A stretch of 64,000 nucleotides of DNA from Escherichia coli (GTDB taxonomy: Bacteria; Pseudomonadota; Gammaproteobacteria; Enterobacterales; Enterobacteriaceae): the NCBI RefSeq assembly GCF_002854065.1, contig NZ_CP024147.1. The stretch is one strand, 5' to 3'. Shown here piece by piece: positions 6,524 to 44,516 of the stretch. The notes below the pieces were generated by a model. That model was given only the letters and a program-made list of their open reading frames with translations. It was not told the DNA's origin and did not search any database. Within the stretch, counting starts at the first letter, position 1; the number at the start of each line of letters is the position of its first letter. Both the position numbers and the translations under genes were made by a program.

Positions 6524-7975
6524 TTAGCACAACGGACGTACAGCTTCGCGCATCCCTTTTTCAAGAATCGCATCCAGGTCATTAGCAACCTGCTCGACCA
6601 GACCAGGCACTTGCGTCAGGTCCTGCTCCCAGTGGTCTTTTTCTGCCAACACAATCGCAACCAGTTCCTGGGTACCGATAACACGGTCACGATGCTGGCT
6701 CCAGAGTTGCTGATAACGTTCCAGCCAGTGTGCATCGTCCTGTACCGGATATGTTTCTCCGTTACGCTCACCGCGATAGAACGCAATCAATGCCGCTAAT
6801 GCGAAAGTAAGGCGCGCCGGAAGTGTGCCGTTTGCCTTCTGCCCTGCCAGTAGCTGCGGCAGGATGCGGGTACGGAACTTGGTCATACCGTTGAGCGCGA
6901 TAGACAGCAGCTGATGCTTGATGTACGGGTTACGGAAACGCCCGGTGACTGCACTGGCGAAAGACTCCAGTTCATCGCGAGGCAAATCCAGAACCGGAAT
7001 AATTTCTTCGTAGATGGCTTTTTCAACGAATGCGCAAATTTCAGCATCGTTCATCGCTTCACCTACGGTATCCAGCCCTGCCTGGAACGCCACCGGCACC
7101 AACGCGGTGTGTGCACCGTTGAGTATTGCCACTTTGCGTTCTTTATACGGTTTAATATCGTCAACAATCAGCACGTTGAGCGGATATTTGTCCAGACGCA
7201 GCTCGGTCGCTAAGGATTTCGGTCCCTGAATCACAAACAGGTAAAAGTGTTCAGCGGTGTCGAGGAAACCATCGTGATAACCCAGTTCTTCTTCCAGTTT
7301 AGCCACTTCATCACGCGGATAACCGGTAACGATACGGTCCACCAGCGTAGAACAGAAGCTGTTAGCCTGATCCAGCCATTGAATAAATGCTTCTGGCAGT
7401 GCCCACTCTTGCGCATAGCGCAGCACCAGTTCACGCAACGCGTCGCCATTGTAGTCGATCAACTCACACGGGATGATGATCCAACCTTTATCCAGCGCAC
7501 CGTTGAAATGGCTAAAACGTTCGAACAGCAGACGGGTCAGTTTTGCCGGATAACTTACCGCTGGCGCGTCATCGAATTTATCGCCCGCATGGTAGCTGAT
7601 ACCCGCTTCGGTGGTGTTAGAGAAAACAAAGCGCATTTCCGGGTTGTGCGCCAGTTTCAGGAATTCATCGTATTCACTGTAGACGCTGATTTCACGATTA
7701 ACAGAGCGAATCAGACGCGCGTCGCTGACCGCTTCCCCCTTTTCATTCAGGCCACGGATAATGGTGGTGTACAGACCATCCTGCGTGCTCAGTGACGGCG
7801 GGAATGAAGTTTCAATCGGACGAACAACGACCACACCAGAATTCAGATCGGTGTGCTCATTCAGGAGATCTATTTGCCAGTCAACAAAGGCGCGCAGGAA
7901 GTTACCTTCACCAAACTGAATGATACGTTCTGGATACTGTGCACCGGGAAAATCGCGACGATTTAGTGTTTTCAC
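6524..7975 (-). CDS. uxaB: altronate oxidoreductase (tagaturonate reductase)
   Basis: 483-aa ORF of the mannitol dehydrogenase family; hexuronate gene context. Confidence 0.9.
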
Positions 7976-12495: not shown

Positions 12496-12595
12496 CGGGG
12501 TATCTCCTTTATGAGTCATGGTATGAAGATACGCAGATTTACTCTTGCTTTAAAATGAATAATATTAAGCCACTTATTCACGAATCGAGAATATT

Positions 12596-13477
12596 ATGGA
12601 TCTGACCCAACTGGAGATGTTCAACGCGGTTGCCGAAGCTGGCAGCATTACGCAGGCTGCAGCAATAGTGCATCGCGTGCCGTCGAATCTCACTACCCGT
12701 CTACGCCAGCTGGAAACAGAACTGGGGGTAGATCTGTTTATTCGCGAGAATCAGCGTTTACGTCTATCTCCTGCCGGGCATAACTTTTTACGCTATAGCC
12801 AACAAATTCTCGCGTTAGTGGATGAAGCGCGGAGCGTTGTCGCTGGCGATGAGCCGCAAGGTTTATTTTCTCTGGGTTCGCTGGAAAGCACCGCAGCAGT
12901 TCGCATTCCGGCCACGCTGGCGGAATTCAACCGTCGTTATCCCAAAATTCAGTTTTCACTTTCCACCGGCCCTTCCGGCACTATGCTGGAAGGTGTGCTG
13001 GAGGGAAAACTTAATGCGGCGTTTATTGATGGACCCATTAACCATACTGCCATTGACGGGATACCGGTATACCGCGAGGAGCTGATGATCGTCACGCCAC
13101 AAGGTCATGCGCCAGTAATCCGTGCCAGTCAGGTTAATGGCAGTAACATTTATGCCTTCCGCGCCAATTGTTCGTATCGTCGCCACTTCGAGAGCTGGTT
13201 TCATGCTGACGGTGCCGCTCCGGGAACTATCCATGAGATGGAGTCTTATCACGGAATGTTGGCCTGTGTGGTCGCAGGAGCAGGTATTGCGCTTATTCCG
13301 CGCTCTATGCTGGAAAGTATGCCGGGGCATCACCAGGTTGAAGCGTGGCCGTTAGCTGAGCAATGGCGTTGGCTAACAACCTGGCTGGTCTGGCGTCGTG
13401 GTGCGAAAACGCGTCCGCTCGAGGCATTTATTCAACTACTGGATGTGCCTGACTCGACAAAACAGGGTTACCAATGA
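12596..13477 (+). CDS. yneJ: LysR-family transcriptional regulator
   Basis: 293-aa ORF with N-terminal LysR HTH; divergent from sad with a 76-bp intergenic region carrying an ATTC-N9-GAAT dyad. Confidence 0.85.
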
Positions 13478-13554
13478 GCTATTTTTGATAGTTCTTGCGG
13501 CTAATATGCTCTATATAGTGATGTTCCGATGACTTATGACTATATGGGGCAAAT

Positions 13555-14670
13555 ATGGTTACGCCAGTAAGCATCAGCAATTACATATCTCTTCCTGATG
13601 ATTTTCCCGTTCGTAATATTGCACCGCAGGTAAAAGAAGTTTTAAAGGATTTTATTGATGCACTTAGTACAATAATATGTAATGAAGAGTGGCGCACGTC
13701 TTTAAACATCAACTCAGCCACAAAAAAGATATTTAATAACCTTGACAACTTATCATATATTCAGAGGACTTCTTTTCGGGGTAACGACACGCTATACAAT
13801 GAAAAGGTTCAGTTTAAACTCACTTATCCCGCCAGGAATGGAAGACACAAAGAAAATATTGAATTTCAGGTAGTAATAAATTTAAGTCCTATTTATTTAG
13901 ATAATTTCCGCCATGATGGAGAAATTAATATTTTTTGCGCTCCCAACCCAAAGCCTGTCACTATGGGGCGCGTATTTCAGACCGGCGTCGAGCGTGTGCT
14001 CTTTCTGTTTCTGAATGATTTTATTGAACAATTTCCAATGATAAACCCTGGCGTTCCCATCAAAAGAGCGCATACACCACATATTGAACCCCTGCCTCCG
14101 GATCACCATACCGCTGCAGATTACTTACGCCAGTTTGATTTGCTTGTCCTGAATTTTATCTCTCGCGGTAATTTTGTTATACTCCCCCGATTATGGAATA
14201 ACTCTGAGGTTCACAGATGGTTCGTCAATAAAGATCCTAACTTGATCACCGCCATTCTCGACATAACGGACAGCGAATTAAAAGAGGATTTATTGCAAAG
14301 CCTGATGGATTCATTAGGTTCTAACAAACATGTACTACCCGAAGTCTGCATCTGCTTTTTATCCCTTTTAGCAGAACAAGAATCTCCTCATTTTCAGGAC
14401 TTGTTTTTATTTTTCGCCAGTATGTTATTGCACTATCACCAATTTATGAATCCCAATGAAAGTGATTTGAATAACGTGTTGATGCCAGCATCATTAAGTG
14501 ATGATAAAATTATCAAACATATGGCGCGCAAGACCCTCAAACTTTTTGTAAAAAATAAAACACCGCCAAAAGTTACTCATGAAGACCTGGTGAAAAACAG
14601 GCCTCGCTCCCCTGTCAGACCACCTATACCCGCAACCTCCAAAACGCCAGACATTCCTGATCGTCATTAA
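13555..14670 (+). CDS. yneK: uncharacterized protein, AT-rich gene
   Basis: 371-aa ORF; noticeably lower G+C than neighbours. Confidence 0.7.
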   Translation: MVTPVSISNYISLPDDFPVRNIAPQVKEVLKDFIDALSTIICNEEWRTSLNINSATKKIFNNLDNLSYIQRTSFRGNDTLYNEKVQFKLTYPARNGRHKENIEFQVVINLSPIYLDNFRHDGEINIFCAPNPKPVTMGRVFQTGVERVLFLFLNDFIEQFPMINPGVPIKRAHTPHIEPLPPDHHTAADYLRQFDLLVLNFISRGNFVILPRLWNNSEVHRWFVNKDPNLITAILDITDSELKEDLLQSLMDSLGSNKHVLPEVCICFLSLLAEQESPHFQDLFLFFASMLLHYHQFMNPNESDLNNVLMPASLSDDKIIKHMARKTLKLFVKNKTPPKVTHEDLVKNRPRSPVRPPIPATSKTPDIPDRH

Positions 14671-14820
14671 ACCGTGATGTTTACCGTCTCTCTGACGCGT
14701 GAAAGAATCAGCGTCAGAGAAACGGAAAACGCGATCCAGATCACAAATGCATTGTATTCACATCATTAACCGTTTTAAGATCATTTCATCACTTTTTCGC
14801 AACTCACCCGATAATCTGTT

Positions 14821-16011
14821 ATGACAACAAACACTGTTTCCCGCAAAGTGGCGTGGCTACGGGTCGTTACGCTGGCAGTCGCCGCCTTCATCTTCAACAC
14901 CACCGAATTTGTCCCTGTTGGCCTACTCTCTGACATTGCGCAAAGTTTTCACATGCAAACCGCTCAGGTCGGCATTATGTTGACCATTTACGCATGGGTA
15001 GTAGCGCTAATGTCATTGCCTTTTATGCTAATGACCAGCCAGGTTGAACGGCGCAAATTACTGATCTGCCTGTTTGTGGTGTTTATTGCCAGCCACGTAC
15101 TGTCGTTTTTATCGTGGAGCTTTACCGTTCTGGTGATCAGTCGCATTGGTGTGGCTTTTGCACATGCGATTTTCTGGTCGATTACGGCGTCCCTGGCGAT
15201 CCGTATGGCTCCGGCCGGGAAGCGAGCACAGGCATTGAGTTTAATTGCCACAGGTACAGCACTGGCAATGGTATTAGGATTACCTCTCGGGCGCATTGTG
15301 GGGCAGTATTTCGGTTGGCGAATGACCTTCTTCGCGATTGGTATCGGGGCGCTTGTTACCCTTTTGTGCCTGATTAAGTTACTTCCCTTACTGCCCAGTG
15401 AGCATTCCGGTTCATTGAAAAGCCTCCCGCTATTGTTCCGCCGCCCGGCATTGATGAGCATTTATTTGTTAACTGTGGTGGTTGTCACCGCCCATTACAC
15501 GGCATACAGCTATATTGAGCCTTTTGTGCAAAACATTGCGGGATTCAGCGCCAACTTTGCCACGGCATTACTGTTATTACTCGGTGGTGCGGGCATTATT
15601 GGCAGCGTGATTTTCGGGAAACTGGGTAATCAGTATGCGTCTGCGTTGGTGAGTACGGCGATTGCGCTGTTGCTGGTGTGTCTGGCACTGCTGCTACCTG
15701 CGGCGAACAGTGAAATACACCTCGGGGTGCTGAGTATTTTCTGGGGGATCGCGATGATGATCATCGGGCTTGGTATGCAGGTTAAAGTGCTGGCGCTGGC
15801 ACCAGATGCCACCGACGTCGCGATGGCGCTATTCTCCGGGATATTTAATATTGGAATCGGGGCGGGTGCGTTGGTAGGTAATCAGGTGAGTCTGCACTGG
15901 TCAATGTCGATGATTGGTTATGTGGGCGCGGTGCCTGCTTTTGCCGCGTTAATATGGTCAATCATTATATTTCGCCGCTGGCCAGTGACACTCGAAGAAC
16001 AGACGCAATAG
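14821..16011 (+). CDS. ydeA: MFS sugar efflux transporter
   Basis: 396-aa ORF with ~12 predicted TM helices. Confidence 0.85.
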
Positions 16012-17367: not shown

Positions 17368-17751
17368 ATGTCCAGACGCAATACTGACGCTATTACCATT
17401 CATAGCATTTTGGACTGGATCGAGGACAACCTGGAATCGCCACTGTCACTGGAGAAAGTGTCAGAGCGTTCGGGTTACTCCAAATGGCACCTGCAACGGA
17501 TGTTTAAAAAAGAAACCGGTCATTCATTAGGCCAATACATCCGCAGCCGTAAGATGACGGAAATCGCGCAAAAGCTGAAGGAAAGTAACGAGCCGATACT
17601 CTATCTGGCAGAACGATATGGCTTCGAGTCGCAACAAACTCTGACCCGAACCTTCAAAAATTACTTTGATGTTCCGCCGCATAAATACCGGATGACCAAT
17701 ATGCAGGGCGAATCGCGCTTTTTACATCCATTAAACCATTACAACAGCTAG
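17368..17751 (+). CDS. marA: AraC/XylS-family transcriptional activator
   Basis: ~127 aa from the ATG at 17368 (ORF track starts 2 codons earlier at 17362); two HTH motifs. Confidence 0.95.
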
Positions 17752-17782
17752 TTGAAAACGTGACAACGTCACTGAGGCAATT

Positions 17783-18001
17783 ATGAAACCGCTTTTATCC
17801 GCAATAGCAGCTGCGCTTATTCTCTTTTCCGCGCAGGGCATTGCGGAACAAACCCAGCAACCGCTCGTTACTTCCTGTGGCGATGTGGTGGTTGTTCCCC
17901 CATCGCAGGAACAACCACCGTTCGATTTAAATCACATGGGTACAGGCAGTGACAAATCGGATGCGCTGGGCGTGCCCTATTATAACCAACAAGCCATGTA
18001 G
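17783..18001 (+). CDS. marB: small periplasmic protein MarB
   Basis: 72-aa ORF with signal peptide, immediately after marA. Confidence 0.9.
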   Translation: MKPLLSAIAAALILFSAQGIAEQTQQPLVTSCGDVVVVPPSQEQPPFDLNHMGTGSDKSDALGVPYYNQQAM

Positions 18002-28821: not shown

Positions 28822-30105
28822 TTACAGACTTCTGGAAGGTTGCGCAGCTCTTACAACACGCGGTTGATCTTCCGCAGCGTCTTCCAGTGCACTTAAATCA
28901 CGGTCTTTCACTTCTGGCATTTTCAGCGCAGAGATTAAACCAATCACTGAATATGCCATGATCATAATGGCGATTGGATACCAGGATTCCGTCATGGTGC
29001 AGAAAATACCTGCCAGGATAGGACCAAAACCGGAAGCGATAAGACCACCAATTTCTTTTGAAATAGCCATCCGGGTAAAGCGGTTTTTACAACCGAACAT
29101 TTCTGCCATGGTAATGTTTTCCAGAGCAAATAATCCCAGCACCGCACAGTTATGAATCACAATCAGTGCAACCATAATCGTGCTCGGGGCATAGCTTTTA
29201 TCTACGATGATAGAAAGCATTGGCCATGCCAGCACAATCGCGGAGGTATTCATAATAATATACGGGATCCGGCGACCAATTTTATCGGATAACCAACCAA
29301 GGAACGGAATGGTCATAAAGCCGAGAATCGAACTAATCATCAATGCATCTGTTGGAATTGCTTTGTTAAACAATAACGTCTGCACTAAATAGCCTGCAAG
29401 GAAAGTCTGAATTAACCCGGAGTTACCCGCCTGACCAAAACGCAGCCCTGTTGCCAGCCAGAAGGATTTGCTCTGGAACATGCTACCAGCAGGTGCAGGT
29501 TTTGCTGTCGGTTGGTTGCTGTCATTAACCTTCTCAAAGACCGGGCTTTCTTTCAGATTCATACGTAACCAGATAGCAAAGACCATCACGACAACGCTCG
29601 CCAGGAACGGTATACGCCATCCCCACGCCAGCAGTTCCTCTTTACTGAGAATGAAGAACATAAAGGCCCAGATTGCCGTTGCGCTCAAGGTTCCGCAGTT
29701 AGTTCCCATAGCTACAAATGAGGAGATAATTCCGCGCTTACCTTTTGGCGCATATTCCACCAGCATCGTACCGGCACCGGAAATTTCCGCACCTGCACCC
29801 AACCCCTGAATAATACGCAGCGTCACCAGCAAGATGGGGGCAAAAACACCAATCTGTGCATAGGTCGGTAACACTCCAATTAAGGTGGTACAGATCCCCA
29901 TCATGGTGATGGTAATAAAGAGCACTTTTTTACGCCCTATTCTGTCGCCCATTTTGCCGAAAATAAATGCTCCGACAATACGCGCCACATAACCTGCACC
30001 GTAGGTTCCCATTGCCAGAATTAACGCCATTGCCGTTGATGATTCAGGAAAAAATATTTCATGAAACACTAACGCTGCGCCGAGCGAATATAACTGGAAA
30101 TCCAT
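28822..30105 (-). pseudogene. ydfJ: MFS transporter gene ydfJ, 3' portion (427 codons); first ~28 codons displaced to 44890-44982 by prophage insertion
   Basis: ORF begins MDFQLYSLGAALVF...; the fragment at 44982-44890 encodes MTIEKHERSTKDLVKAAVSGWLGTALEFMDF, which joins in frame across the att core. Confidence 0.85.
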
Positions 30106-30110
30106 AATTC
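30097..30110. repeat. attL core (host-phage junction inside ydfJ)
   Basis: 14 bp matching the 15-bp copy at 44890-44904 apart from a 1-nt indel. Confidence 0.75.
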
Positions 30111-30706
30111 ACAGGTGTTTTTTCCCATCCTGTGGTTTCCTTGGCGTTTTCTAGGTTTTTTCAGATAGTTGCATTTTTTTAAAAGCATCCTAAGTTCGAT
30201 CTCAGTGTCTATCTGGGGCCTATTTCTGTCCCATATATGCCCCAAAAAACTCCCCAACAGATAAGTAGTTTTTTCATGGATTTACGCGTAAAATCAATAA
30301 CGGCTGGAAATCATTCAATACTCGCACTATCGAAAAATTTACCAGCCAACCGCAGCACGTTCTTGCATAAGGTGTGTCTGCGGTTTTTCAACTATTCAGA
30401 TACATCACTCCCATCACATTCATTCCTCCACATCAAAGGCATATAGGCTATATCACCTTGATATTTTTCTTCTTCAGATAAAAACTGTTATCTATGTATA
30501 CTTTTAAACCCAATCCGTGTAGAGTCTCTGCATAAGATAGTTTGCAGTTGCCACTTCAGATTGCGCCATAAACCGCCTGATTTTTGCCGCCACCTGTTAG
30601 CATTCCTGTATACCTGAAACGACAATGTTTATCTACGAACTTTAAGAACACCCAAGATAAAATTGTCAACTATATCATATATAACACATTACTAATTCGA
30701 GGCTAT

Positions 30707-30820
30707 ATGAACAGCATACTGATAATCACTTCTCTCCTTATCATATTCAGCATTTTTAGTCATGCCCTAATAAAATTAGGGATTGGCATATCCAATAACC
30801 CAGACAAAACCGATGTATAA
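30707..30820 (+). CDS. candidate 37-aa hydrophobic small protein ([37 protein letters not shown])
   Basis: ATG at 30707 preceded by GAGG 4 nt upstream; single predicted TM helix; within a longer track ORF (30584..30820). Confidence 0.3.
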
Positions 30821-30888
30821 GTCAACATATCCTGAATCAGACATACAATATCGCAATGAAAATCAATAATATTTTAAGGAATATCTTC

Positions 30889-31122
30889 ATGAAATCAAAA
30901 GACACCCTAAAGTGGTTCCCTGCGCAGCTTCCTGAAGTAAGAATTATCCTAGGGGATGCTGTAGTGGAAGTAGCAAAACAGGGAAGACCTATCAATACCA
31001 GAACATTGCTTGATTACATTGAAGGAAACATAAAGAAAAAATCATGGCTGGATAACAAAGAATTATTACAAACAGCGATATCAGTTCTTAAAGACAACCA
31101 AAATTTAAATGGTAAAATGTAA
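30889..31122 (+). CDS. ydfK: small prophage protein (YdfK/YnaE family, cold-shock associated)
   Basis: ~77 aa from the ATG at 30889 (MKSKDTLKWFPAQLPEV...). Confidence 0.75.
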   Translation: MKSKDTLKWFPAQLPEVRIILGDAVVEVAKQGRPINTRTLLDYIEGNIKKKSWLDNKELLQTAISVLKDNQNLNGKM

Positions 31123-31438
31123 TATAATAAACTTACTTTTTTATCATTTTTCCACTTTAACAACATTTTGCTCCACTTTTCCACGAGCAAACAACTTGAA
31201 ATCTGGTTAAAATAACACGCAACACTATTCTTCTTCCTTGAGTCCGCCCGGAACTCGAAAAACAAACCGAGTTAAAGCCATTTTTCACAAAATCGATTTT
31301 GGGTCTCACCAAAGTTACGGGGTTGCATACGCATTCGTTTATTTTCGAACGTGTACATACAAATATGCACAAAAATAATCAAAATTATTTTCTGAGATGC
31401 ATTATGATATGAACACCAATTTCGTATAGAGTCTCACT

Positions 31439-32029
31439 ATGTCTCGAATTTTTGCTTACTGTCGGATATCAACGCTGGATCAGACCACCGAAAATCAACG
31501 CCGGGAAATCGAAAGTGCAGGTTTTAAAATCAAACCTCAGCAAATAATCGAAGAACACATTAGCGGCTCAGCAGCAACCAGTGAGCGTCCTGGTTTTAAC
31601 CGGTTGCTTGCTCGCCTGAAATGTGGTGATCAATTGATTGTGACAAAACTGGATCGCCTTGGTTGTAATGCAATGGATATCAGGAAAACAGTGGAACAAC
31701 TGACCGAAACAGGTATCAGAGTGCATTGCTTAGCATTGGGGGGCATTGACCTGACCAGTCCAACAGGAAAAATGATGATGCACGTAATTTCAGCAGTCGC
31801 TGAATTTGAACGAGACCTTTTACTTGAACGCACTCATTCCGGGATAGTAAGAGCCCGCGGCGCAGGGAAACGTTTTGGTCGACCACCTGTGTTAAATGAA
31901 GAACAGAAACAGGTGGTATTCGAACGAATTAAGTCAGGTGTAAGTATAAGTGCCATTGCCCGGGAATTCAAAACCTCGCGGCAAACCATTTTAAGAGCCA
32001 AAGCAAAACTTCAGACACCTGACATATAA
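31439..32029 (+). CDS. pinQ: serine-recombinase DNA invertase (Pin/Gin/Hin family)
   Basis: 196-aa ORF; N-terminal catalytic region YCRISTLDQ with the conserved serine; C-terminal HTH. Confidence 0.9.
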
Positions 32030-32126
32030 AAAATAATCTCGGTGTGAGATGCTTTACGTCTTCCAAGCCCCCTTCCTTGCCGTAAATGGAAAGATACATC
32101 TAATTATAGAATTTATATGTTTTACC

Positions 32127-32702
32127 CTACGGCAGTGCTGGCCATTCAATATCCTGTGCAGTTGACGTATCAACACGGTTCAGCAACACCCGATACTTTT
32201 TCCAGGCTTCCAGCAATGAGGTTTCTTCCTCCGTTGCGATTTCCAGATCTACAGCATCCTGAAGTGGCGCAATATGCTCACTGGCTACCTGCATCAGGCT
32301 GTTTTTTGTTTCTTCCGCCTCCCGGATCCGGAACAGTTTTTCTGCTTCTGCATCTTTCACCCAGGCTGTGCCGTTCCACTTCTGAAACTCCCCTTCCGGC
32401 GATAACCAGGTAACATTTTCCGGTAACGGACCGAGTTCAGAAATAAATAACGCGTCCCCTGACGCTACGTCATAAACCGTTTTACCCCGATGGTCTTCAA
32501 CGAGATGCCACGATGCCTCATCACTGTTGAAAACAGCCACAAAGCCAGCAGGAATATCTGGCGGTGCAATATCGGTACTGTTTGCTGGCAGACCTGTATG
32601 AGGCGGAATATATGCATCACCTTCACCAATAAATTCATTAGTTCCGGCCAGCAGATTATAAATTTTTATGGTCCGTGGTTGTTCACTCATTCTGAATGCC
32701 AT
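32127..32702 (-). CDS. tfaQ: tail fibre assembly protein (Tfa)
   Basis: 191-aa ORF of the lambda Tfa/Mu U type; start overlaps the stop of the upstream tail-fibre fragment. Confidence 0.85.
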
Positions 32703-33271
32703 TATGCAAGCCTCACAATATAGTTAAATGCGATGTTTTTGACGGTGTTTTCCGCGTTACCAGCAGCGTTAACGGTGATGGTGTGTCCATGTGAACCAAT
32801 CGCAACGGAGTGCGTATGAGCACCAATACCGACAGTATGTGCGTGTGCACCTGCGCTTGCAGCAGTGCCGGACAGTGAGTGGGTACTGGTATAATCCCAT
32901 TGAATATTTACACCAGTCGCATAATTTCCGATTGCAACGTAAATATCGTAAGTATCACCAGATGTATTGACCCAGGCAAAATTTGTAAACCCTGCCGATG
33001 TGCGCTGCCATAAAGCACCAGTAATCCCCTTCGGATTACCATTACCTGCACGCAAAACAAGTTCAGATATACCTGCCTGTTGAGGTGAACCGACGTTATA
33101 TCCAGCCCCACCAATCAACGTAATTGAAACAACAGAACTCGCCTGCGGCATGGTTACCGTTGCTAATTTGAACCAACCAGCACCACCGCTGAATGACATT
33201 GTTGTTGAGTTAAGCGTACCAATATCTTTCGGTGTCAGTGTTATATCCGCTGAAAGCGCCTTACCATTCAC
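32702..33271 (-). pseudogene. stfQ: side tail fibre, C-terminal fragment only
   Basis: 189-codon ORF with tail-fibre-tip-like C-terminus ([22 protein letters not shown] repeats); no ATG, in-frame stop 6 codons upstream at 33290-33292. Confidence 0.75.
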
Positions 33272-33275
33272 CTTA

Positions 33276-33401
33276 CGGGCAGAAGGTATTCACGCAGGGA
33301 AAATATCTTTCCCCCTCCGGTGTTCTCACCACGAAGCCGCACGACTCCGCTGGCGCACATCGCCGGGCGTGCGCCAGAATCGCTGATTCTGTCTCTGTCA
33401 T
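33276..33401 (-). pseudogene. N-terminal stub (42 codons) of lambda K-like tail assembly protein
   Basis: Minus-strand translation [38 protein letters not shown] then TFCP-stop; near-identical to the lambda K N-terminus as I recall it, then divergent. Confidence 0.7.
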
Positions 33402-33406
33402 GGGAT

Positions 33407-34105
33407 TCACTGCGAAAGTTTGTTAATGGAAAGGAAGCCGCCAAAGTTGCCGACGTTATTGCGAAACTTACAGCCGCTCAGGCATTTGCTGCATTTATCC
33501 TTCGTGATATCGGACGTCGGCTGATCATATTCATCCGCGACCGCCGGACCGTGATAACCGCACTCATCACCGCGATAGGTCCAGGTGCAGGTGTTGGCCA
33601 GCATGATACGTCCCGGAAAAACGGCACCGTCCGTTTCCGTCGGCGTGGACAGTACAAAAGAGGCACTGACCGCGCTCAGTTCGCTGCACTGCTCGATGCG
33701 CCAGCGGCTGATCACCTCCTGCTCCGGATCGGCGTCACTGTTTCCGTTGACGAAGTTCACCGCATCCAGAAAACGGGCGTAAACCTTACGCCGGACCACC
33801 GTTCCTCCGACCAGACTCTGCAGGTCTTCCGCCATCCCGGTGACCATGCCGTGCAGGTTAGAAACCGTCAGTGTCGGACGGGCAGCACTGCCTTTGCCGT
33901 TCAGTTCAAATCCCGTCCCCTGAATGGGATACGCCTGATACTGTCGCCCCTGCCAGGTGACCGGCTCACCTTTATCGTTCTGCTCATTACAGAAAAAGTA
34001 GCGTTCCCCGCCTACCTCGGTCAGGTCGATTTCCCAGAGCACCACCTGGGCTGACTGAGTGAGGCGTGTCGTCTCATGATGTGTTTCCTGTGGAATATCC
34101 TGCAT
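33407..34105 (-). CDS. minor tail protein L (lambda L homologue)
   Basis: 232 aa, same length as lambda L; position between M and K. Confidence 0.85.
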   Translation of the reverse strand: MQDIPQETHHETTRLTQSAQVVLWEIDLTEVGGERYFFCNEQNDKGEPVTWQGRQYQAYPIQGTGFELNGKGSAARPTLTVSNLHGMVTGMAEDLQSLVGGTVVRRKVYARFLDAVNFVNGNSDADPEQEVISRWRIEQCSELSAVSASFVLSTPTETDGAVFPGRIMLANTCTWTYRGDECGYHGPAVADEYDQPTSDITKDKCSKCLSGCKFRNNVGNFGGFLSINKLSQ

Positions 34106-34114
34106 CAGAGACTC

Positions 34115-34444
34115 CTATGCCACGACCTGTTCAAAATCTGCCGTTATGGTTACCCACAACGCCCCCACGCTTGCCGACCATTTACGACAAACCACCCTGA
34201 TCGGCTTCCAGTCATAAGGTGGCGTCCACTGAAATGCGCGGACGCCACCGTGCCGTTCCAGAAAGGCTTTTAAAGATGGGTGTTCACATTTACGAACACG
34301 TATAGTCACGCTGTAAATCGACAACTGGTTATTCAGTCCCGCCGCACGACGCTGTTCATAACCATCGCCCAGCTTCACTGTCACCACTTTCGGCTCTGAT
34401 ACCACATTCATATCCGGGCGCACTTTCCAGTGAAACGTCTCCAT
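34115..34444 (-). CDS. minor tail protein M (lambda M homologue)
   Basis: 109 aa; METFHWKVRPDMNVVSEPKV... closely resembles lambda M. Confidence 0.85.
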   Translation of the reverse strand: METFHWKVRPDMNVVSEPKVVTVKLGDGYEQRRAAGLNNQLSIYSVTIRVRKCEHPSLKAFLERHGGVRAFQWTPPYDWKPIRVVCRKWSASVGALWVTITADFEQVVA

Positions 34445-36618
34445 TACCGATATGCTCCACTTAACCGACCACCATCACGGGCCTGCTGTTGCATAAAGTC
34501 CGCTGCCGCTTTTTTCCCAAGGTCATAAACCACCTTCAGGGCAGCCGGACCTATCTGCCCGTTCGTGCCATCGTTATTGATCTCGATGTTGTACTGCGGG
34601 GCAAACATCGCCATACCTGAACCACCAATATCCGCCACAACCCCCAGCTTACCGTCAGCACCACGACGCAGTGGCAGAATGGCTTCAGGTCCAGCTTCCC
34701 CCATCACACCCGCGCCTTTTGCAAAAGCAAAAAACGTCGGACGGTTAACCACCGTGCCACTGTAACGACTCAAATCAGCAGACTGATAAATCCCCCCATT
34801 GGCATTCAGGGAAAGGCTGCTGAGATCAAATCCCAGTACACTGCCAATCCCTTTTATCGATTTCATCATGGTTGCCTGCGCCAGGATTTTCGCCATATCT
34901 GACAGCACCGAAGAGGTGAAGGATTTGAAGTTGAGTTTGCCGGTAGTGACAAAAGTTGCCAGGCCATTTCCCATGTTGCTGAAGGCTGATGAGAACACCT
35001 GTTCTGCTGTTCCTGCCGTATTGTCTGCATCCACGGTAAAATCCTGAAATGCACGCAGGACTCCGTTTTTCCAGTTACCCTGCACAACTTCAAGCTGTTG
35101 CCAGTAACGGCGATTCTCATTCAGTTGTCGGTTCAGGCTCTCCGTCAGCGCCTGCTCGGCCTTTCTGTAGTCATCCGTGTTATATGTCCCTTTCTGCTCA
35201 CTATCCCGCCTCAACTGCTCCAGCTGTTGCTGGTATTTCTGGCGAAGACTCAGTTGTACCTGATATCGCTGCCGCTGCTGATCACCCATACCCACCGTGG
35301 CGATATCCAGGTCATGTTGCTGACGCTGAGCGCGCTCTTCTTCAGCCAGTTGACTGGTCAGCTGAATTGTTTTTTTCTTCAGATCGTTGAGTGCCGTCTG
35401 TTTCTGAAGCTCCTGCTGTTTTACATCCAGCAGCGTCAGTGCCTGAATCAGTTCATCTTTACGGGCCAGCACACTCTTTTCATCTGCCGTCAGTTTTTTC
35501 CCGTCCAGATCGCTGATGCGCTGCTGCAGAGCCAGAAGCTGTTTATGCGCTTCTGTCATCTTTTCAGTGGCAATGCCTGCTGACTGTCTTGCAGCAGCAA
35601 TCTGTCCTTCCACCTGTGCCTGTTGCTGACTGTACTGCAGCAATAACCGGGTGGCCTCATCATTACGGGGTTCGCGTGTTTTTTTCTTACCGGATGCCAG
35701 GGCTTTCTCGTAACGTTCATTTTCACGTTGTATCGCCGCATCCCTGACAGCCTGATCGGCGTACTGCATGGCATTAATACGCGCAATTTCACGCTGATGT
35801 CGTGCTGCTTCCGTTTCATTCATCCGGTTCAGTGCAGCATTTTCAGCATTACGGCGTTTCTGTTGCTCCTGATAATTCCGCTCTGCCTGCTCTTTTGCAT
35901 CCTGCAAATCCTTCTGGCGTTTTTTCTCCTGAAGCTCGTTAAGACGCTGCTGATCGTACTCAACCTGAGAAGATGATGCCGTCCAGGGGAGTCTTTTCAC
36001 CCGCGACACTTTCTCCTGTAAAGCGGAAATCTGTTCATCCAGCGAGTCTTCACGACCAATATTCATGGCCGCATCCCAGAAACGACTCCATAAATCAGAC
36101 AGATACTTCAGCGTACTGCCCAGCGCATTGAGGTTATTATCAATATCCGCAGTACGCCGACCGGTTTCCTCTGCCAGTGCAGACATGGCTATCCGTGCCG
36201 CATCACTGGACCGCCCCTGTTCCCCAAGGACGCGTATCTGTTCAAGCTGAGTGGCAGTAAGAAAATGCAGCTCATTGTCCAGAGCCTTCGCGGCATTTAC
36301 AGGATCATCCTTCAGCCGCTTAAACTGATTTATGGTATCGCTGACCGACTGGCCAACCGATCGCTCCATCTGTGCGGCAGCTCTCGCCACCATACGGGAT
36401 GGATCATGAACAGAGTCTGCTGCCTCATGCTTCACACTAAACAGGGCTGGCCCGACATGGTGCAGGGCGTAAACGGGGTTCCCCCTGACAGTCGCAGCCA
36501 CAGGAGTGTTGGCCGCGAGGAGCCGTTTTTTTACTGTGTCCCGGTGAAGCCCAAAGGCCTCAGCGATTTTAAAAACACTCCAGTAATAAGCATCACCGAT
36601 CCCGCTCACATTTGACAT
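34444..36618 (-). CDS. chimeric ORF: Nu1-like terminase small-subunit N-terminal DNA-binding region fused to lambda H-like tail tape measure (central and C-terminal parts)
   Basis: C-terminus INNDGTNGQIGPAALKVVYD...RDGGRLSGAYR matches the lambda H C-terminus; glutamine-rich coiled-coil middle; N-terminal ~100 aa has a Nu1-like winged-HTH pattern; ATG at 36618 has GGAG 6 nt upstream (track ORF extends to 36648). Confidence 0.7.
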   Translation of the reverse strand: MSNVSGIGDAYYWSVFKIAEAFGLHRDTVKKRLLAANTPVAATVRGNPVYALHHVGPALFSVKHEAADSVHDPSRMVARAAAQMERSVGQSVSDTINQFKRLKDDPVNAAKALDNELHFLTATQLEQIRVLGEQGRSSDAARIAMSALAEETGRRTADIDNNLNALGSTLKYLSDLWSRFWDAAMNIGREDSLDEQISALQEKVSRVKRLPWTASSSQVEYDQQRLNELQEKKRQKDLQDAKEQAERNYQEQQKRRNAENAALNRMNETEAARHQREIARINAMQYADQAVRDAAIQRENERYEKALASGKKKTREPRNDEATRLLLQYSQQQAQVEGQIAAARQSAGIATEKMTEAHKQLLALQQRISDLDGKKLTADEKSVLARKDELIQALTLLDVKQQELQKQTALNDLKKKTIQLTSQLAEEERAQRQQHDLDIATVGMGDQQRQRYQVQLSLRQKYQQQLEQLRRDSEQKGTYNTDDYRKAEQALTESLNRQLNENRRYWQQLEVVQGNWKNGVLRAFQDFTVDADNTAGTAEQVFSSAFSNMGNGLATFVTTGKLNFKSFTSSVLSDMAKILAQATMMKSIKGIGSVLGFDLSSLSLNANGGIYQSADLSRYSGTVVNRPTFFAFAKGAGVMGEAGPEAILPLRRGADGKLGVVADIGGSGMAMFAPQYNIEINNDGTNGQIGPAALKVVYDLGKKAAADFMQQQARDGGRLSGAYR

Positions 36619-36798
36619 AAGCAACTCCATCTGGCAGGTGAAAATCATGTTTATTTATATATTTCAATTAATTGCAAACTGGTCTAATGACAGGGAGAAA
36701 AAAATATTGTACAGGTGAAAAGAGAAATAACTTTTAATTATCAATAAATTACCAAACATGCTGCCGCCGCCATGGAAATGCAAAAACTAGCCTTTTTC

Positions 36799-36818
36799 CG
36801 CGACGCTCCCGCCCCGTG
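36799..36818 (-). other. lambda-like cos (cosN-like) sequence ~180 bp upstream of the Nu1-like start
   Basis: Minus strand reads ACGGGGCGGGAGCGTCGCGG, close to the lambda cosN region ACGGGGCGGCGACCTCGCGG as I recall it. Confidence 0.55.
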
Positions 36819-37182
36819 GCAGGGGCCCCCACCGGGAGGACCCGACAGCCTGACAGCCGTGACGAGCATCTGATACAGCGCTTTACATAATGGCATAGGA
36901 ATAATTCAGAAGGACATCACAGCATGCCCACACAAATTAGTGTGAGTGTCCTGTTTCTTCCTACGCACAGGACTGACGAGCATGAGGGGAAAATATGCGA
37001 ACCATAAATGCCTCATCTTCAGCAATGCAGCCGGCATCCGAACAGGACGATATTGTAAATTCACCTAATTACGAGGACATTGCAGTAGTTGAATTGCAGC
37101 TCTGTATTAGCCTGACAGTGACAGAATGCGATACTGACTCTGTCACAGGTGAAATAGTTTGAATGATTAGCAGTTATGGTGC

Positions 37183-37389
37183 TCAGTCAACCACCAGGGA
37201 ATAATCCTTCGAATTCTTATCGTGCTTCACCAACGCTGCCTCAATTGCCCTGAATGCTTCCAGAGACACCTGATGTTCTATACATGCAATTACAACATCC
37301 GGGTAACTCATAGAAATGGTGCTATTAAGCATATTTTTTACACGAATCAGATCCAACGAGAGTTCATCAGCAGATTGTTCTTTATTCAT
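37183..37389 (-). CDS. small uncharacterized prophage protein
   Basis: 68-aa ORF in the AT-rich moron region divergent from ydfO. Confidence 0.5.
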
Positions 37390-37689
37390 TTTGTCGCTCC
37401 ATGCGTTTGCTCGTCATCTAGCGGTTAAAATATTACTTCAAATCTTTCTGCATAAAAGAGGAAAAGTATGAAAGTTTGAGTACATCGACCTTACATACAT
37501 CTGTCGGTTGCATATCCCTCCTGGATGCCAGCAAGGCTCAACTTTGTTACGCAATCAACACTATTCATTAAAAACAGGCTTAATATTTGACATAAATCAT
37601 CAACAAAACACAAAGAGGTCAGACCAGATTGAAACAATAAACACGATAATGCAAACTACGCGCCATCGTATCACATGGAAGGTTAACCA

Positions 37690-38100
37690 ATGGCTCAGGC
37701 TGCCATTTTTAAAGAAATATTCGATCAAGTGCGTAAAGATTTAAACTGTGAATTATTTTATTCTGAGCTAAAACGTCACAATGTCTCACTTTATATTTAC
37801 TATTTAGCCACAGATAATATTCACATTGTGTTAGAAAACGACAACATAGTGTTAGTAAAAGGACTCAAAAAGGTTGTAAATGTTAAATTCTCCAGAAACA
37901 AACATCTTATAGAGACCTCCTATAATAAGTTGAAATCAAAAGAAATCACATTTCAACAATACAGGGATAATCTTGCTAAAGCAGGAGTTTTCCGATGGGT
38001 TACAAATATCCAGGAACACCAAAGATATTACTATGCCTTTGATAACTCATTACTATTTACTGAAAGCATCCAGAAAACTACACAGATCTTACCACGCTAA
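37690..38100 (+). CDS. ydfO: uncharacterized prophage protein (DUF1398, YdfO-like)
   Basis: 136-aa ORF. Confidence 0.7.
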
Positions 38101-38251
38101 ACCATAACGTCCGGCTTCTCTCACTCCTGAGCCGGACTGCATTGGTTTAATAAAAACCATCAACAATTGTGATTTAGATATTCGGAACCATTCAAATATA
38201 ACAAAACCCCGTAAAAACGAGGTTTATGGATAAATTTTATTATTGAATACA

Positions 38252-38425
38252 TCAGATTAAATTAATCTTGACATCATAGCTTTCAAGACCCGTCATTTTT
38301 TCCCGTGCGGTAAACTGAATACTGGTAACTTCTTTCCCGGTCTTTTTCTTAAGTTCAATAATTTTTTTTGTTATATATTCAGAAATATCTGCTTCTGCTT
38401 TTGTTTTTAAGTCTTCAATATTCAT
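38252..38425 (-). CDS. gnsB: 57-aa GnsA/GnsB-family small protein
   Basis: Minus-strand translation MNIEDLKTKAEADISEYITKKIIELKKKTGKEVTSIQFTAREKMTGLESYDVKINLI; too short for the ORF track. Confidence 0.75.
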   Translation of the reverse strand: MNIEDLKTKAEADISEYITKKIIELKKKTGKEVTSIQFTAREKMTGLESYDVKINLI

Positions 38426-38596
38426 CATTTCCTCTTTTAGTCTGTTATGACTTTCCAGTTACACAGTAAATCGATTATATGGTGCAAACGTGTAAAAGAT
38501 AAGATGAAAAATCGCAATAATCAACATACGATAGTCTAAATTTTACACAAACAGACAAAGAGAATTTTCCTGAATTATCAATGCAATAGCATCAAA

Positions 38597-38752
38597 TCAA
38601 CTCAAGAGCCTTATTGCTGCTTCCAGAATTTCTTCTGAAGTAACATGTCGATCCGCGGCTACATAAATGACTTTATGATCTCCGGTCAGAGATGGAAACC
38701 CTGCGGCCATTACAGTAAGGTGTGTTTTTTCGCCATTTGGATATTCACGCAT
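38597..38752 (-). CDS. ynfN: small prophage protein (YnfN-like); start uncertain
   Basis: 51 aa from MREYPNGEK...; the same frame stays open upstream to 38869. Confidence 0.6.
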   Translation of the reverse strand: MREYPNGEKTHLTVMAAGFPSLTGDHKVIYVAADRHVTSEEILEAAIRLLS

Positions 38753-38870
38753 GATGGTGTTAACTCCAGTCATCGCTGGCACTACCACTGCTGGTTCAGA
38801 GTTAAAAAAAACTATGATTTTTTTCATGATGTTACCGTAGTATGTGAGTATCCATCGAATAGACACCAAG

Positions 38871-38905
38871 CAAAAAAGCTCCCGAAGGAGCCTTCATTTT
38901 CACTT
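38871..38905. terminator. bidirectional-looking hairpin (GCTCC-CGAA-GGAGC) flanked by A-run and T-run, ~200 bp downstream of cspI
   Basis: AAAAAAGCTCCCGAAGGAGCCTTCATTTTCACTTTTTT. Confidence 0.55.
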
Positions 38906-39098
38906 TTTTAAATCCAACGACAGACGGCTGGCATTTAAGTATTGTGAAATATTATCAAATGTAATCATCATTGATTTACAAAAGATACATTTTGCCCCGA
39001 AAGGATTCATGTCAGAAACATCAAAAGATGATGTTCTATACTGGGAACCATGACAACACGGGCATCTAAAGTGAATATGGTTTGTAATATTGTCTACC

Positions 39099-39311
39099 TC
39101 AAAGCGCCACTACATGAACAGCGGCAGGACCTTTAGGTCCGTTCTCAATACCAAATTCAACTTCCTGATTCTCAGTTAATGTTTTGAAATCGTTGCTCTG
39201 AATTGCTGAGAAATGGACAAACACATCTTTGCTGCCATCTTTCGGCGTGATGAAACCAAAACCTTTTTCAGGGTTAAACCATTTCACTAAACCAGTCATT
39301 TTGTTAGACAT
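39099..39311 (-). CDS. cspI: CspA-family cold shock protein
   Basis: 70 aa, [23 protein letters not shown]... with RNP1/RNP2 motifs. Confidence 0.9.
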
Positions 39312-39673
39312 AATTATTACCTTTTGAAGAAATTAGCCCTTGGGCAGAATGGTCCGAAAAAAAATATCAGAGAGAAAAACCAACAAGGAAATCCCAAGAG
39401 GTACAAATAATAAAATTATAACAATGACTGCTTCAGATAAATTTGTAACAAACCAGAACACCATTAACGCATGATTAACCACCCATAGCAAGGATTACTT
39501 TTGTAAAGAAAAACACAGCAATGAAAGAATAGCTTTATTTATTAATAAAACGTGTCATTCTGATTAAGACCTTTTATCTTACCCTTAAGATTTCAGGAAT
39601 TTTGGCTCATGGAAGAGTCCTTTTTATTTAAATTTTACATTCCGCGATGTAAATGTTCCGATTTAATATTACC

Positions 39674-40698
<1,025 letters not shown>

Positions 40699-40702
<4 letters not shown>

Positions 40703-41010
40703 AGATATTTATGATGAGGACGCTCGTGCTTATTGGCAGGATTTTCAATCTTAAAGGAGTACTGATGCTGCAGATAAGACTCAACTTTTTCTGACAATTT
40801 TTCTGCTACTTCCAGGAAGACTTGCCGGACGCTCCTTCTGGCTGCTGCCTCATAAAACTCCAGCGCAGCTCCTTCAACACGGTCCATGGCGACATCCAGG
40901 TCAAAAATTTCACCGTCAAAGCGTTCTTTGTCCTGTAAGGCTACAGTTACCGTAACTTTGTTCTCAAAATTACGGACTCCTTTCACAACCAGTTCATAGT
41001 CTTGAGTCAT
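40699..41010 (-). CDS. ydfR: uncharacterized protein encoded between holin and endolysin
   Basis: 103-aa ORF overlapping the endolysin start by 4 nt (ATGA). Confidence 0.7.
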
Positions 41011-41014
41011 TGGA

Positions 41015-41230
41015 TTACTCTCCTCTCGCAGCCTTACGCCTGTCTTCTTTAATCTTGAAATAAAGATTTGTCAGATACGTCAGCAGGCCAAAAACCAGGC
41101 TACCCAGCACACCGATTGCAGCCCACTGTGACGGAGTTACTTTATCGAGTAACTGCAATGCCCAGAAACCAGCATTACCCGCCGATGTGCCATAGGCAAC
41201 ACCTGTTGTTAACTTATCCATTGATTTCAT
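41015..41230 (-). CDS. essQ: S21-type holin (pinholin)
   Basis: 71 aa from [28 protein letters not shown]... with two TM segments; track ORF extends upstream to 41305. Confidence 0.85.
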
Positions 41231-41449
41231 ATCCTCACCCCGATGTACACGGATGGTGCAATATGTTTGAAAAGATCGGAGTCTACGGGGTAGTTTTGAC
41301 AGCACACGCTGTTCTCAACGGCGCTAAAGAAACATACACATTAAAAATGTGAGTAATTATTTTGAAAGAAAGTCATATATAAAATAATAATACGAGAAAT
41401 GTTTTCATATTTAGTGTACTGTATACGGCCATTTATACAGGAAAAGCCT

Positions 41450-41620: not shown

Positions 41621-41677
41621 TTGATTTTATTAGTAACAAGTATTTTTTATATTTTAATAATATATTTAAAGTAGATA

Positions 41678-42724: not shown

Positions 42725-42744
42725 ATTGCCCCATTTAAAGCACA

Positions 42745-42874: not shown

Positions 42875-44516
<1,642 letters not shown>

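Follow-up and report, generated by a model that had tools for sequence, protein, structure and literature searches.

yneK, an AT-rich orphan gene and probable old piece of foreign DNA between ptrR and ydeA in Escherichia coli

The yneK locus and its product

The DNA analysed, here called the window, is a stretch of 64,000 nucleotides of Escherichia coli contig NZ_CP024147.1. The yneK gene lies in an AT-rich segment between a conserved regulator gene and a conserved transporter gene, and the locus contains the following features:

12596..13444, + strand: ptrR (yneJ), LysR-type regulator and conserved left flank (81-98% protein identity across 80 Enterobacteriaceae loci)
13445..14705, no strand assigned: inserted AT-rich segment (the islet), ~1.26 kb, with an uncertain right edge, from ~14705 to ~14722
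13445..13477, + strand: end of ptrR (10 codons plus the stop), supplied by the inserted DNA and not by ancestral ptrR sequence
13478..13554, + strand: ptrR-yneK spacer of 77 bp, presumed to hold the yneK promoter and ribosome-binding region
13555..14670, + strand: yneK coding sequence (371 aa, 42.8 kDa, pI 6.7)
14679..14730, + strand: 20-nt inverted repeat forming a strong hairpin, directly past the yneK stop and at the right junction
14722..14820, + strand: ancestral ydeA upstream region, intact past the insert and alignable in E. coli, E. albertii, other Escherichia, Salmonella, Citrobacter and Trabulsiella
14821..16011, + strand: ydeA, MFS transporter and conserved right flank in the locus comparison

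The open reading frame at 13555-14670 (+) is named yneK in the near-identical record NZ_CP182139. Its product matches the NCBIfam equivalog NF033404 (YneK) from end to end, with profile positions 1-371 aligned to residues 1-371 (E = 1e-243; 807.9 bits, against a cutoff of 40), and the gene sits between ptrR and ydeA, as the synteny test for YneK demands. It is the same gene as yneK of E. coli K-12 (b1527, UniProt P76150), which also encodes 371 aa at the same ptrR/yneJ-ydeA position, at K-12 coordinates ~1,613.7-1,615.0 kb as used in PMC5493296. The window differs from the K-12 type in having a rarer form of the sequence: over 13400-14800, no more than 26 records reach 99% identity to it, and the majority are 95-99% identical. 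In the literature yneK is described as uncharacterised, with no Pfam or KEGG annotation, and as prevalent in E. coli and Shigella alone (PMC12757027, PMC11540155); both its annotation and its restriction to these bacteria were already known.

No signal peptide-like or transmembrane segment was found in the YneK protein. Ser, Thr, Ile, Asn and Pro are abundant in its first 25 residues, which contain no Sec signal, and its C-terminal tail, rich in proline, contains an invariant RPRSPV motif. No significant internal duplication was detected in YneK.

Base composition and codon usage

An earlier note on this DNA had described yneK as visibly AT-rich compared with its neighbours, which the whole-gene value bears out: its G+C content is 39.2%, outside the range of the flanking genes sad (52.7%), ptrR (53.4%), ydeA (51.4%) and marC (50.6%). 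Against the 39 other intact non-prophage genes within the window, used as the reference set (mean 50.7%, sd 2.7%), it ranks lowest of 40 (z = -4.2), and against its 10 nearest genes the deviation is larger (z = -5.3). Both 60-nt counts given in the note for the 5' part of the gene, 25/60 and 18/60 G+C, were exact.

The third-position G+C content (GC3) of yneK is 38.4% (z = -3.05 versus the same 39 genes), and its codon adaptation, measured against the window's own genes, is 0.616, the lowest of 40 (z = -2.9), indicating that the skew is not merely a matter of amino-acid content. The gene is an outlier at codon positions 1, 2 and 3. The sliding G+C and codon-adaptation analyses proposed in the note both place yneK low; in 1116-nt sliding steps of G+C it ranks at the 6.9th percentile for the window as a whole. 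Kilobase-scale segments of lower G+C lie mostly inside the 30-45 kb prophage region, and a second stretch as G+C-poor as yneK is found at ~21.3-22.9 kb, in the dgcZ/ydeI region.

The protein had also been called Asn/Ile/Lys/Phe-rich. This holds for Asn, Phe and Lys (2.2x, 1.7x and 1.45x the window level, respectively), but Ile is raised only 1.2x, and the description missed the excess of Pro (1.8x) and the scarcity of Gly (0.29x) and Ala (0.37x).

The interval 13448-14704 has 39.5% G+C and 60.5% A+T, which makes it a kilobase-scale AT-rich tract of the kind targeted by H-NS. The H-NS nucleation motif used for scanning was a tCGATAAATT-like consensus. This high-affinity motif was not enriched, with 20 matches in the window versus 20.4 expected, and one match with a single mismatch lies inside yneK.

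Homology, domain and fold searches

An exhaustive phmmer search of 1.84 billion representative proteins returned no homologue outside the YneK family. The 47 matches at E <= 0.001 were all at least 55% identical and all members of this family, many of them fragments or frameshifted. In a word-indexed search of 5.8 billion proteins, every named match was from Escherichia or Shigella. Apparent low-identity homologues (47-64%) were rejected as frameshifted calls from error-rich assemblies, for example at locus L008. With tblastn, no yneK match was found in phages, and plasmids yielded only misfiled E. coli chromosomes and short remnants, such as one of 102 bp. No identifiable donor of yneK, and no relatives in other taxa or mobile elements, were found in these searches. 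The orphan-like character ascribed to the gene therefore stands across 1.84 billion proteins, phages and plasmids.

The statement that YneK has no recognisable domain was likewise confirmed: Pfam gave nothing above threshold, PADLOC matched none of its families, PHROGs showed no significant match, and sequence and profile searches of the PDB gave nothing significant, while NCBIfam returned only the protein's own family. Two AlphaFold runs produced no confident fold (pLDDT 38 and 49).

Distribution and the empty site

The sad-ptrR-ydeA-marC backbone is conserved across Enterobacteriaceae. Among 80 Enterobacteriaceae loci retrieved via PtrR, none of which was returned under the names E. fergusonii, E. 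marmotae or E. ruysiae, yneK was found in E. coli (L009) and E. albertii (L014) alone; this is the phylogenetic distribution that the note had proposed to determine. Where yneK is missing, as in Salmonella, many Citrobacter, Trabulsiella, E. whittamii and three other Escherichia species, the gap between ptrR and ydeA is 97-320 bp long, and no yneK remnant was detected in these gaps beyond chance matches and one 13-nt extension. The gene thus shows the patchy distribution, with an empty site between conserved flanks, that characterises an islet.

Flanking-gene protein identity to the window is 89-91% in E. albertii and 93-97% in the Escherichia species without yneK. E. albertii is therefore the most distant Escherichia at the flanks, yet it has the insert in common with E. 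coli, an awkward phyletic pattern. It may reflect clean losses in several lineages, or early movement between lineages, or an ancestral polymorphism.

Junctions of the insert

In an alignment from the 3' end of ptrR to the start of ydeA, covering E. coli, E. albertii, four further Escherichia species, Salmonella, Citrobacter and Trabulsiella, homology with the empty sites ends after 13444 and returns clearly at ~14722, perhaps already at ~14705, and the resulting insert interval, 13445..14705, coincides with the composition trough. E. coli and E. albertii are the only species in which matches to PtrR reach residue 293. In nearly all species with a short ptrR-ydeA gap and no yneK they stop at residues 282-286, with a few Citrobacter reaching up to 292. 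In Escherichia without yneK, the PtrR tail (LLDTSLEQ...) is similar to those of Citrobacter and Salmonella (LLNPQLSQ.., LLNAQLAS..). Since the tails without yneK are alike, and the insert itself encodes those of E. coli and E. albertii, the polarity of the event is that of an insertion.

No mobility signature was found at yneK: the search for a tRNA gene, integrase, IS element, target-site duplication or terminal repeat was negative, no mobility gene occurs among its neighbours, and neither direct nor terminal inverted repeats flank it.

The 77-bp spacer is 84% identical to that of E. albertii, compared with 74% for the yneK coding sequence. A consensus scan of the spacer found no sigma-70-like site. 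Binding of RNA polymerase holoenzyme in the K-12 yneJ/yneK spacer has been reported by genomic SELEX, in vitro only (PMC5493296, PMC8743547). A dyad in the spacer, CTAT-N5-ATAG, was discarded as being at chance level (36/100 shuffles), and inspection by eye of the sad-ptrR operator region revealed none like it. At the other end of the insert, the hairpin at 14679..14730 has a predicted RNA fold of -30.4 kcal/mol (z = -6.7 versus shuffles) with no U-tract after the stem, and a terminator scan found no intrinsic terminator at the 3' end of yneK. E. albertii and the B2 deletion allele both retain the stem. An Rfam scan of 12500-15000 detected no RNA family.

Age and coding constraint

Between the window and E. 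albertii, dS is 1.15 for yneK and 0.80-1.20 for sad, ptrR, ydeA and marC; this match with the flanking genes indicates that the acquisition was ancient and not recent. Three comparisons gave a dN/dS of 0.15-0.18 for yneK, the upper 95% bootstrap bound never exceeding 0.25, and alignments of its alleles are gap-free over 371 residues at 68-84% identity and up to 26% nucleotide divergence. These values and the lack of indels point to a real coding gene under moderate purifying selection. Polarised AT-to-GC versus GC-to-AT substitutions gave an implied equilibrium G+C of ~0.39 for yneK and 0.37-0.41 for ydeA, a similarity that does not discriminate between maintained low G+C and amelioration.

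Gene loss and allele classes

At least 80% of the yneK region is present in 4233 of 5426 complete E. coli genomes. One internal deletion junction is common to 1116 of the 5426, and the B2 strain CFT073 fits it at 340/341 bases. In a second type of deletion ptrR is fused to a truncated ydeA. A cluster of truncated YneK proteins carries Shigella sonnei labels, and in the E. albertii type strain yneK is interrupted by a stop at codon 86. The gene is dispensable.

A divergent allele, at least 95% identical to that of locus L007, was found in about 93 genomes. Across yneK this allele is 10-24% different from the window, against 1-5% in the flanks, with a dS of 0.58 for yneK versus 0.20 for ydeA. 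E. coli therefore has two deeply diverged yneK allele classes.

Discussion

In the account that we consider probable, yneK is foreign DNA acquired long ago as a single gene: some 1.26 kb of AT-rich sequence entered the 3' end of ptrR by illegitimate recombination in an early Escherichia lineage, replacing the last ptrR codons and landing upstream of an intact ydeA promoter. Both E. coli and E. albertii have kept the insert approximately since those species parted, and it is still at ~36-39% G+C. The word foreign rests on the empty site and the composition, because no donor was found. The reading of yneK as a horizontally acquired islet, put forward in the earlier note, is thus upheld by the conserved backbone and the empty site, but needs to be amended: the acquisition was ancient, neither donor nor mobility signature was found, and the gene is selectively maintained.

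That yneK is a native gene, inherited vertically and lost from all other Enterobacteriaceae, with a low G+C content due to some local or selective peculiarity, is very doubtful and was already disfavoured. The equality of its dS with that of its neighbours between E. coli and E. albertii speaks for long vertical descent, and the lack of donor and mobility signature would fit, but this reading demands many independent clean losses across genera, each restoring a short ptrR-ydeA gap, and it is at odds with the insert-encoded PtrR tails, with the mutual likeness of the tails in species without yneK, and with a composition and codon use that are outlying at every codon position. Birth of yneK de novo from local non-coding Escherichia sequence would explain a gene with no homologue anywhere and a very narrow taxonomic range. 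This origin is exceedingly unlikely and already disfavoured by the junction alignment, as the empty site measures only ~100-300 bp and the 1.26 kb insert is dissimilar to it; purifying selection on a 371-codon frame in both E. coli and E. albertii is also unlike what would be seen in a young de novo gene. It is improbable, too, that the frame is a non-functional chance or decaying one in foreign junk DNA, shaped by drift alone. Repeated loss, truncation or interruption of yneK, the lowest codon adaptation in the window, a product without homologues, domain or confident fold, and a Keio yneK knockout with no significant effect in one follow-up screen (PMC12757027) all agree with such a frame. 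Against it stand the low dN/dS with its bootstrap upper limits of at most 0.25, the absence of any indel over 371 codons at up to 26% nucleotide divergence, and an upstream spacer better conserved than the coding sequence.

A further alternative concerns function: YneK could be a 'fossil' or orphan substrate of type III secretion, or another host-interaction protein, of the kind of IcaR (YjgL) and IcaT (YfdF). The latter are AT-rich chromosomal orphans of E. coli that are secreted by the Shigella type III apparatus and have been called 'ancient chromosome genes'; with 35-36% G+C, icaR and icaT are single insertions adjoining core genes; they occur in phylogroups A, B1, D and E but are mostly missing in B2 and truncated in Shigella, and icaR is also found in E. 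albertii while both are seemingly absent from E. marmotae and E. fergusonii (PMC9241512). In the same way, yneK is a single AT-rich orphan next to core genes that also occurs in E. albertii, is missing from several other Escherichia species, has been deleted in B2 strain CFT073 and is decaying in Shigella, as in the S. sonnei-labelled truncated cluster. The Ser/Thr/Ile/Asn/Pro-rich first 25 residues without a Sec signal, a qualitative argument, and the proline-rich tail with its invariant RPRSPV point in the same direction. However, yneK has ~39% G+C and not 35-36%, and YneK has no sequence similarity to YjgL or YfdF, given that phmmer finds the YneK family alone. The consensus used to scan for the MxiE box was GTATCGTTTTTTTANAG, which had 0 matches at up to 3 mismatches in the whole window, and a common phyletic pattern can merely mirror a common phylogeny. 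Such a function is quite unlikely, and it is just as doubtful that, by analogy, YneK, IcaR/YjgL and IcaT/YfdF would form a small class of ancient AT-rich Escherichia orphans left over as substrates or partners of type III secretion, either of ETT2 or of an ancestral pINV-like system. If true, this class would account for the presence of yneK in non-B2 E. coli and E. albertii and its decay in Shigella and B2, and a host-exposed YneK would account for the deep allelic dimorphism.

As an ordinary old xenogeneic orphan, yneK resembles the AT-rich islets of enterobacteria that are silenced by H-NS: its G+C lies ~11 points under that of its neighbours, its codons are atypical, and it is lineage-restricted, with no Salmonella orthologue. 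About 46% of H-NS-bound E. coli genes are without Salmonella orthologues (PMC3064808). It differs from typical H-NS-target islets in being an old single-gene islet without integrase, tRNA gene or IS element. By analogy with other AT-rich lineage-specific genes, yneK would probably be bound by H-NS/StpA and quiet in ordinary culture, with transcription from its own conserved spacer only under a particular condition. The protein might combine an N-terminal part of mixed alpha/beta structure with a C-terminal half resembling helical repeats and a tail rich in proline. It could perhaps serve as an accessory factor that binds other proteins and is not an enzyme, with a benefit limited to some niches.

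Many AT-rich, lineage-restricted genes of unassigned function are found in E. coli, and taken alone yneK is of little importance. What is added here are the exact boundaries of the insertion, with a ptrR C-terminus supplied by the insert; a gene that is ancient yet AT-rich, and under purifying selection yet repeatedly lost; and its patchy spread within Escherichia, together with two deep allele classes. The parallel with icaR and icaT provides one cheap functional lead that is open to testing, and yneK offers a clean small case of two wider questions, namely why old foreign genes remain AT-rich and what sustains orphan proteins.

Identity and base composition of yneK

The window is E. coli chromosome. 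The annotated yneK coding sequence occupies exactly 13555-14670 on the forward strand (371 aa), within the local gene order glsB-sad-ptrR(yneJ)-yneK-ydeA-marC-marRAB. The region 13400-14800 was 100% identical to E. coli CUWW06 (NZ_CP182139), the best-matching genome, and the NCBIfam equivalog model 'YneK' covered the protein end to end (E = 1e-243); both the annotation and this match confirm the gene name. The window diverges from CUWW06 beyond ~19 kb, and the coordinates in our gene table, from which prophage genes were left out, were verified within the window itself.

The earlier note regarded yneK as AT-rich from two 60-nt samples near its 5' end, and its counts of 25 and 18 G+C were exact on recount. 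This observation stands, because the G+C content of the whole gene (39.2%) falls outside the range of the four flanking genes (50.6-53.4%). Among 40 non-prophage genes yneK had the lowest G+C (others 50.7 ± 2.7%, z = -4.2), its GC3 was 38.4% (z = -3.05), and it was the least adapted to the codon usage of the window's genes (z = -2.9). The low-G+C trough spans ~13.45-14.8 kb. The protein had been described as rich in Asn, Ile, Lys and Phe, which held for Asn, Phe and Lys, while Ile was barely enriched; the enrichment extended to Pro (1.8x), with strong depletion of Gly and Ala. Searches of Pfam, PADLOC, PHROGs and PDB sequences yielded no recognisable domain, as the note had stated.

Most of the window's lower-G+C kb-scale segments lie elsewhere, at ~30100-45000, where ~15 kb of extra DNA is found between ydfJ and rspB; in CUWW06 this place holds ~4 kb of Qin-type prophage genes in a degraded state. 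By its position, this segment is probably a Qin-type prophage. Other differences were an IS3-family element (HTH_Tnp_1 ORF and rve integrase-core ORF) that splits ynfC at ~48900-50500, a gene intact in CUWW06, and the absence from the window of the IS1 located in ydeE of CUWW06.

Insertion site and its edges

Eighty loci from species-representative genomes were gathered via PtrR, and the flanking genes were located in each. The sad-ptrR backbone was present in every locus extending far enough, and in about two thirds of the loci ydeA-marC came next inside the retrieved flanking sequence. Only the loci of E. coli (L009) and E. albertii had yneK between ptrR and ydeA. The ptrR-ydeA gap was just 97-320 bp in two Salmonella enterica subspecies (diarizonae and arizonae), many Citrobacter, Trabulsiella and four Escherichia species representatives, one of them E. 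whittamii. The junction is a variable spot, since Enterobacter, Klebsiella, Kluyvera and Kosakonia hold 1-5 kb of other, G+C-rich ordinary genes there, encoding, where checked, a GNAT acetyltransferase and PhzF-like proteins. In Enterobacter and Klebsiella (for example L056, 6860-9190, and L064, 6860-9760) the junction carries a GNAT acetyltransferase gene together with one or two PhzF-like genes, at 53-63% G+C, in contrast to Escherichia, Salmonella and many Citrobacter, which have almost nothing at this junction.

In the junction alignment, homology to the empty sites stops after 13444 (ptrR codon 283) and is clearly back at ~14722, possibly from ~14705, which gives an insert of ~1.26 kb. 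The features of the insert are:

Insert, after 13444 to ~14705-14722, G+C 39.5%: the last ten PtrR residues and stop codon, a 77-bp spacer, yneK (13555-14670, forward strand) and the 5' arm of a hairpin
14679-14730: strong hairpin, a 20-nt inverted repeat exactly at the right junction of the insert (-30.4 kcal/mol, z = -6.7)

The hairpin is not a classical terminator, since it has no U-tract. Its 3' arm overlaps sequence weakly alignable with the ancestral ptrR tail of yneK-less Escherichia.

In yneK-less Escherichia PtrR has a tail (LLDTSLEQ...) similar to the Citrobacter and Salmonella ones (LLNPQLSQ.., LLNAQLAS..), and the tails of E. coli and E. albertii are unlike all of these. Since the yneK-less tails are alike and no yneK remnant was found in the short ptrR-ydeA gaps, the sequence comparison indicates that the empty site is the ancestral state and yneK the insertion. 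The upstream region of ydeA, 3' of the insert, is conserved and intact. The insert showed neither a duplicated target site nor terminal repeats, and no integrase, IS element or tRNA gene was found with it.

Distribution and history of the insert

At the flanking genes E. albertii is the most distant Escherichia, yet it carries the same insert as E. coli, while four nearer species representatives have an ancestral-looking empty site (the PtrR-based set had no entries named E. fergusonii, E. marmotae or E. ruysiae). This distribution could reflect a single gain long ago with several later clean losses, a polymorphism already present in the ancestor, or the early passage of the insert-bearing haplotype from one lineage to another. 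The yneK-less locus of one of these four, Escherichia sp. MOD1-EC7003 (L010, ~6846-7030), retains 13 nt of E. coli-type ptrR tail, with PtrR ending in ...LLDVPD*, followed by ~50 nt of unmatched sequence and then an ancestral-type tail remnant, which looks more like a secondary loss of the insert than a site that was never occupied.

Between the window and E. albertii, dS was 1.15 for yneK and 0.80-1.20 for sad, ptrR, ydeA and marC; the copies have therefore been separated for about as long as the species. The G+C content is still 36-39% in all yneK alleles. Three pairwise comparisons gave dN/dS values of 0.15-0.18 for yneK (bootstrap upper limits ≤0.25), far below 1, yet several-fold to 30-fold above the neighbouring genes (0.005-0.06). 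Five full-length YneK sequences, down to 68% identity, aligned without gaps over 371 residues, with the C-terminal third evolving fastest.

Loss, truncation and a second allele class

Of 5426 complete E. coli genomes, 4233 hold 80% or more of the region. One internal deletion, in which 102 bp at the 5' end and ~30 bp at the 3' end survive, was common to 1116 genomes, and its junction is carried by the B2 reference strain CFT073 (340/341 bases identical); a second deletion type joins ptrR to a truncated ydeA. A 258-aa truncated YneK forms a cluster of 3818 sequences with source labels naming Shigella sonnei. The E. albertii type strain NBRC 107761 (L014, 6961-8076) has a premature stop at codon 86, and the gene is intact in three E. 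albertii contigs (L004-L006) with 99.5% DNA identity to that strain. In laboratory strains selected to tolerate butanol, yneK-ydeA-marC is deleted, which the authors ascribe to marC (10.1101/143792; see also PMC11187965).

A second allele class was found in about 93 complete E. coli genomes. It has at least 95% identity to a metagenome locus (L007), and its YneK shares 84% protein identity with that of the window. In a sliding comparison, divergence rose from 1-5% in the flanks to ~10% in the 3' half of ptrR and 10-24% across yneK, returning to 1-5% directly after the stop codon, and dS was 0.58 for yneK vs 0.20 for ydeA. The divergent haplotype (loci L007 and L090) begins mid-ptrR and ends at the yneK stop (window ~12900-14670), suggesting an old introgression or long-kept alleles.

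The marB gene (17711-18001) is also hypervariable, with 10-16% nucleotide difference from L090 and another E. coli locus, L009, vs 0-3% in the surrounding mar genes. A pangenome association jointly linked marB and yneK to bovine-cell adherence (PMC11540155), which may merely reflect linked haplotypes.

Search for a donor

An exhaustive phmmer search of 1.84 billion representative proteins returned 47 matches, all with at least 55% identity and all of the YneK family, the lower-identity ones being fragments or frameshifted calls from error-rich assemblies. A 5.8-billion-sequence search found only sequences named Escherichia or Shigella, or unnamed. By tblastn, yneK had zero matches in 50,697 phage records; the matches in 72,556 'plasmid' records were all either E. 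coli chromosomes filed there by mistake or the short remnant left by the deletion. The view of yneK as an acquired islet among core genes is supported by an AT-rich insert between conserved flanks with an empty site in relatives; neither a mobility signature nor a donor was found.

Some public records of this locus were unusual. The L008 locus (CP182552.1) has 89-94% DNA but 47-69% protein identity to the window owing to many small indels, lacks ptrR and part of sad, and accounts for several low-identity 'YneK' fragments found in protein databases; it is probably an error-rich assembly. Two records look mislabelled: a 'Caldithrix sp.' MAG contig (L009, SMXE01000224.1), with proteins 98-100% identical to those of E. 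coli across sad-marR, and a 'Chryseobacterium sp. 18061' contig (L041, CACSKA010000003.1), with an enterobacterial sad-ptrR...ydeA locus.

Putative expression and function

The 77-bp ptrR-yneK spacer is 84% identical to that of E. albertii, vs 74% for the coding sequence. No consensus sigma-70 site was found in it; binding of RNA polymerase holoenzyme at this spacer has been reported by in vitro genomic SELEX (PMC5493296, PMC8743547). The xenogeneic silencing raised by the earlier note is plausible in the form of H-NS silencing, given the base composition and the general result that ~46% of the E. coli genes bound by H-NS have no orthologue in Salmonella (PMC3064808). Matches to the high-affinity H-NS motif were not enriched in the window (20, vs 20.4 expected), and one of them, with a single mismatch, falls within yneK.

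YneK has a predicted mass of 42.8 kDa and a pI of 6.7, and the sequence scan detected no Sec-type signal and no hydrophobic segment of membrane-helix length. Two low-confidence AlphaFold models (pLDDT 38 and 49) have just three features in common: an N-terminal part of alpha/beta type, a C-terminal half made of helices, and a disordered proline-rich tail, in which an RPRSPV motif is invariant. Structure searches yielded nothing more specific than ARM/HEAT-like repeat proteins, which superposed poorly. Together this is no more than a hint that YneK could be a protein-binding scaffold.

The closest known gene is yneK itself, which is already annotated; published work calls it uncharacterised and restricts it to E. 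coli and Shigella (PMC12757027, PMC11540155). Its most instructive analogues are icaR (yjgL) and icaT (yfdF), which are likewise single AT-rich genes inserted into the chromosome and closely resemble yneK in phyletic pattern: they occur in most non-B2 E. coli, icaR also in E. albertii, are seemingly missing from E. marmotae and E. fergusonii, and show decay in Shigella; their products were shown to be type III secretion substrates (PMC9241512). However, no MxiE box was found for yneK, and the exhaustive phmmer search showed no similarity of YneK to IcaR or IcaT. A kinship with these substrates is very improbable and should be taken as a lead, not a classification.

The islet reading is supported and can be refined to an ancient and precise insertion of a coding, dispensable gene. 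In kind, yneK is an ordinary feature, a typical old xenogeneic orphan.
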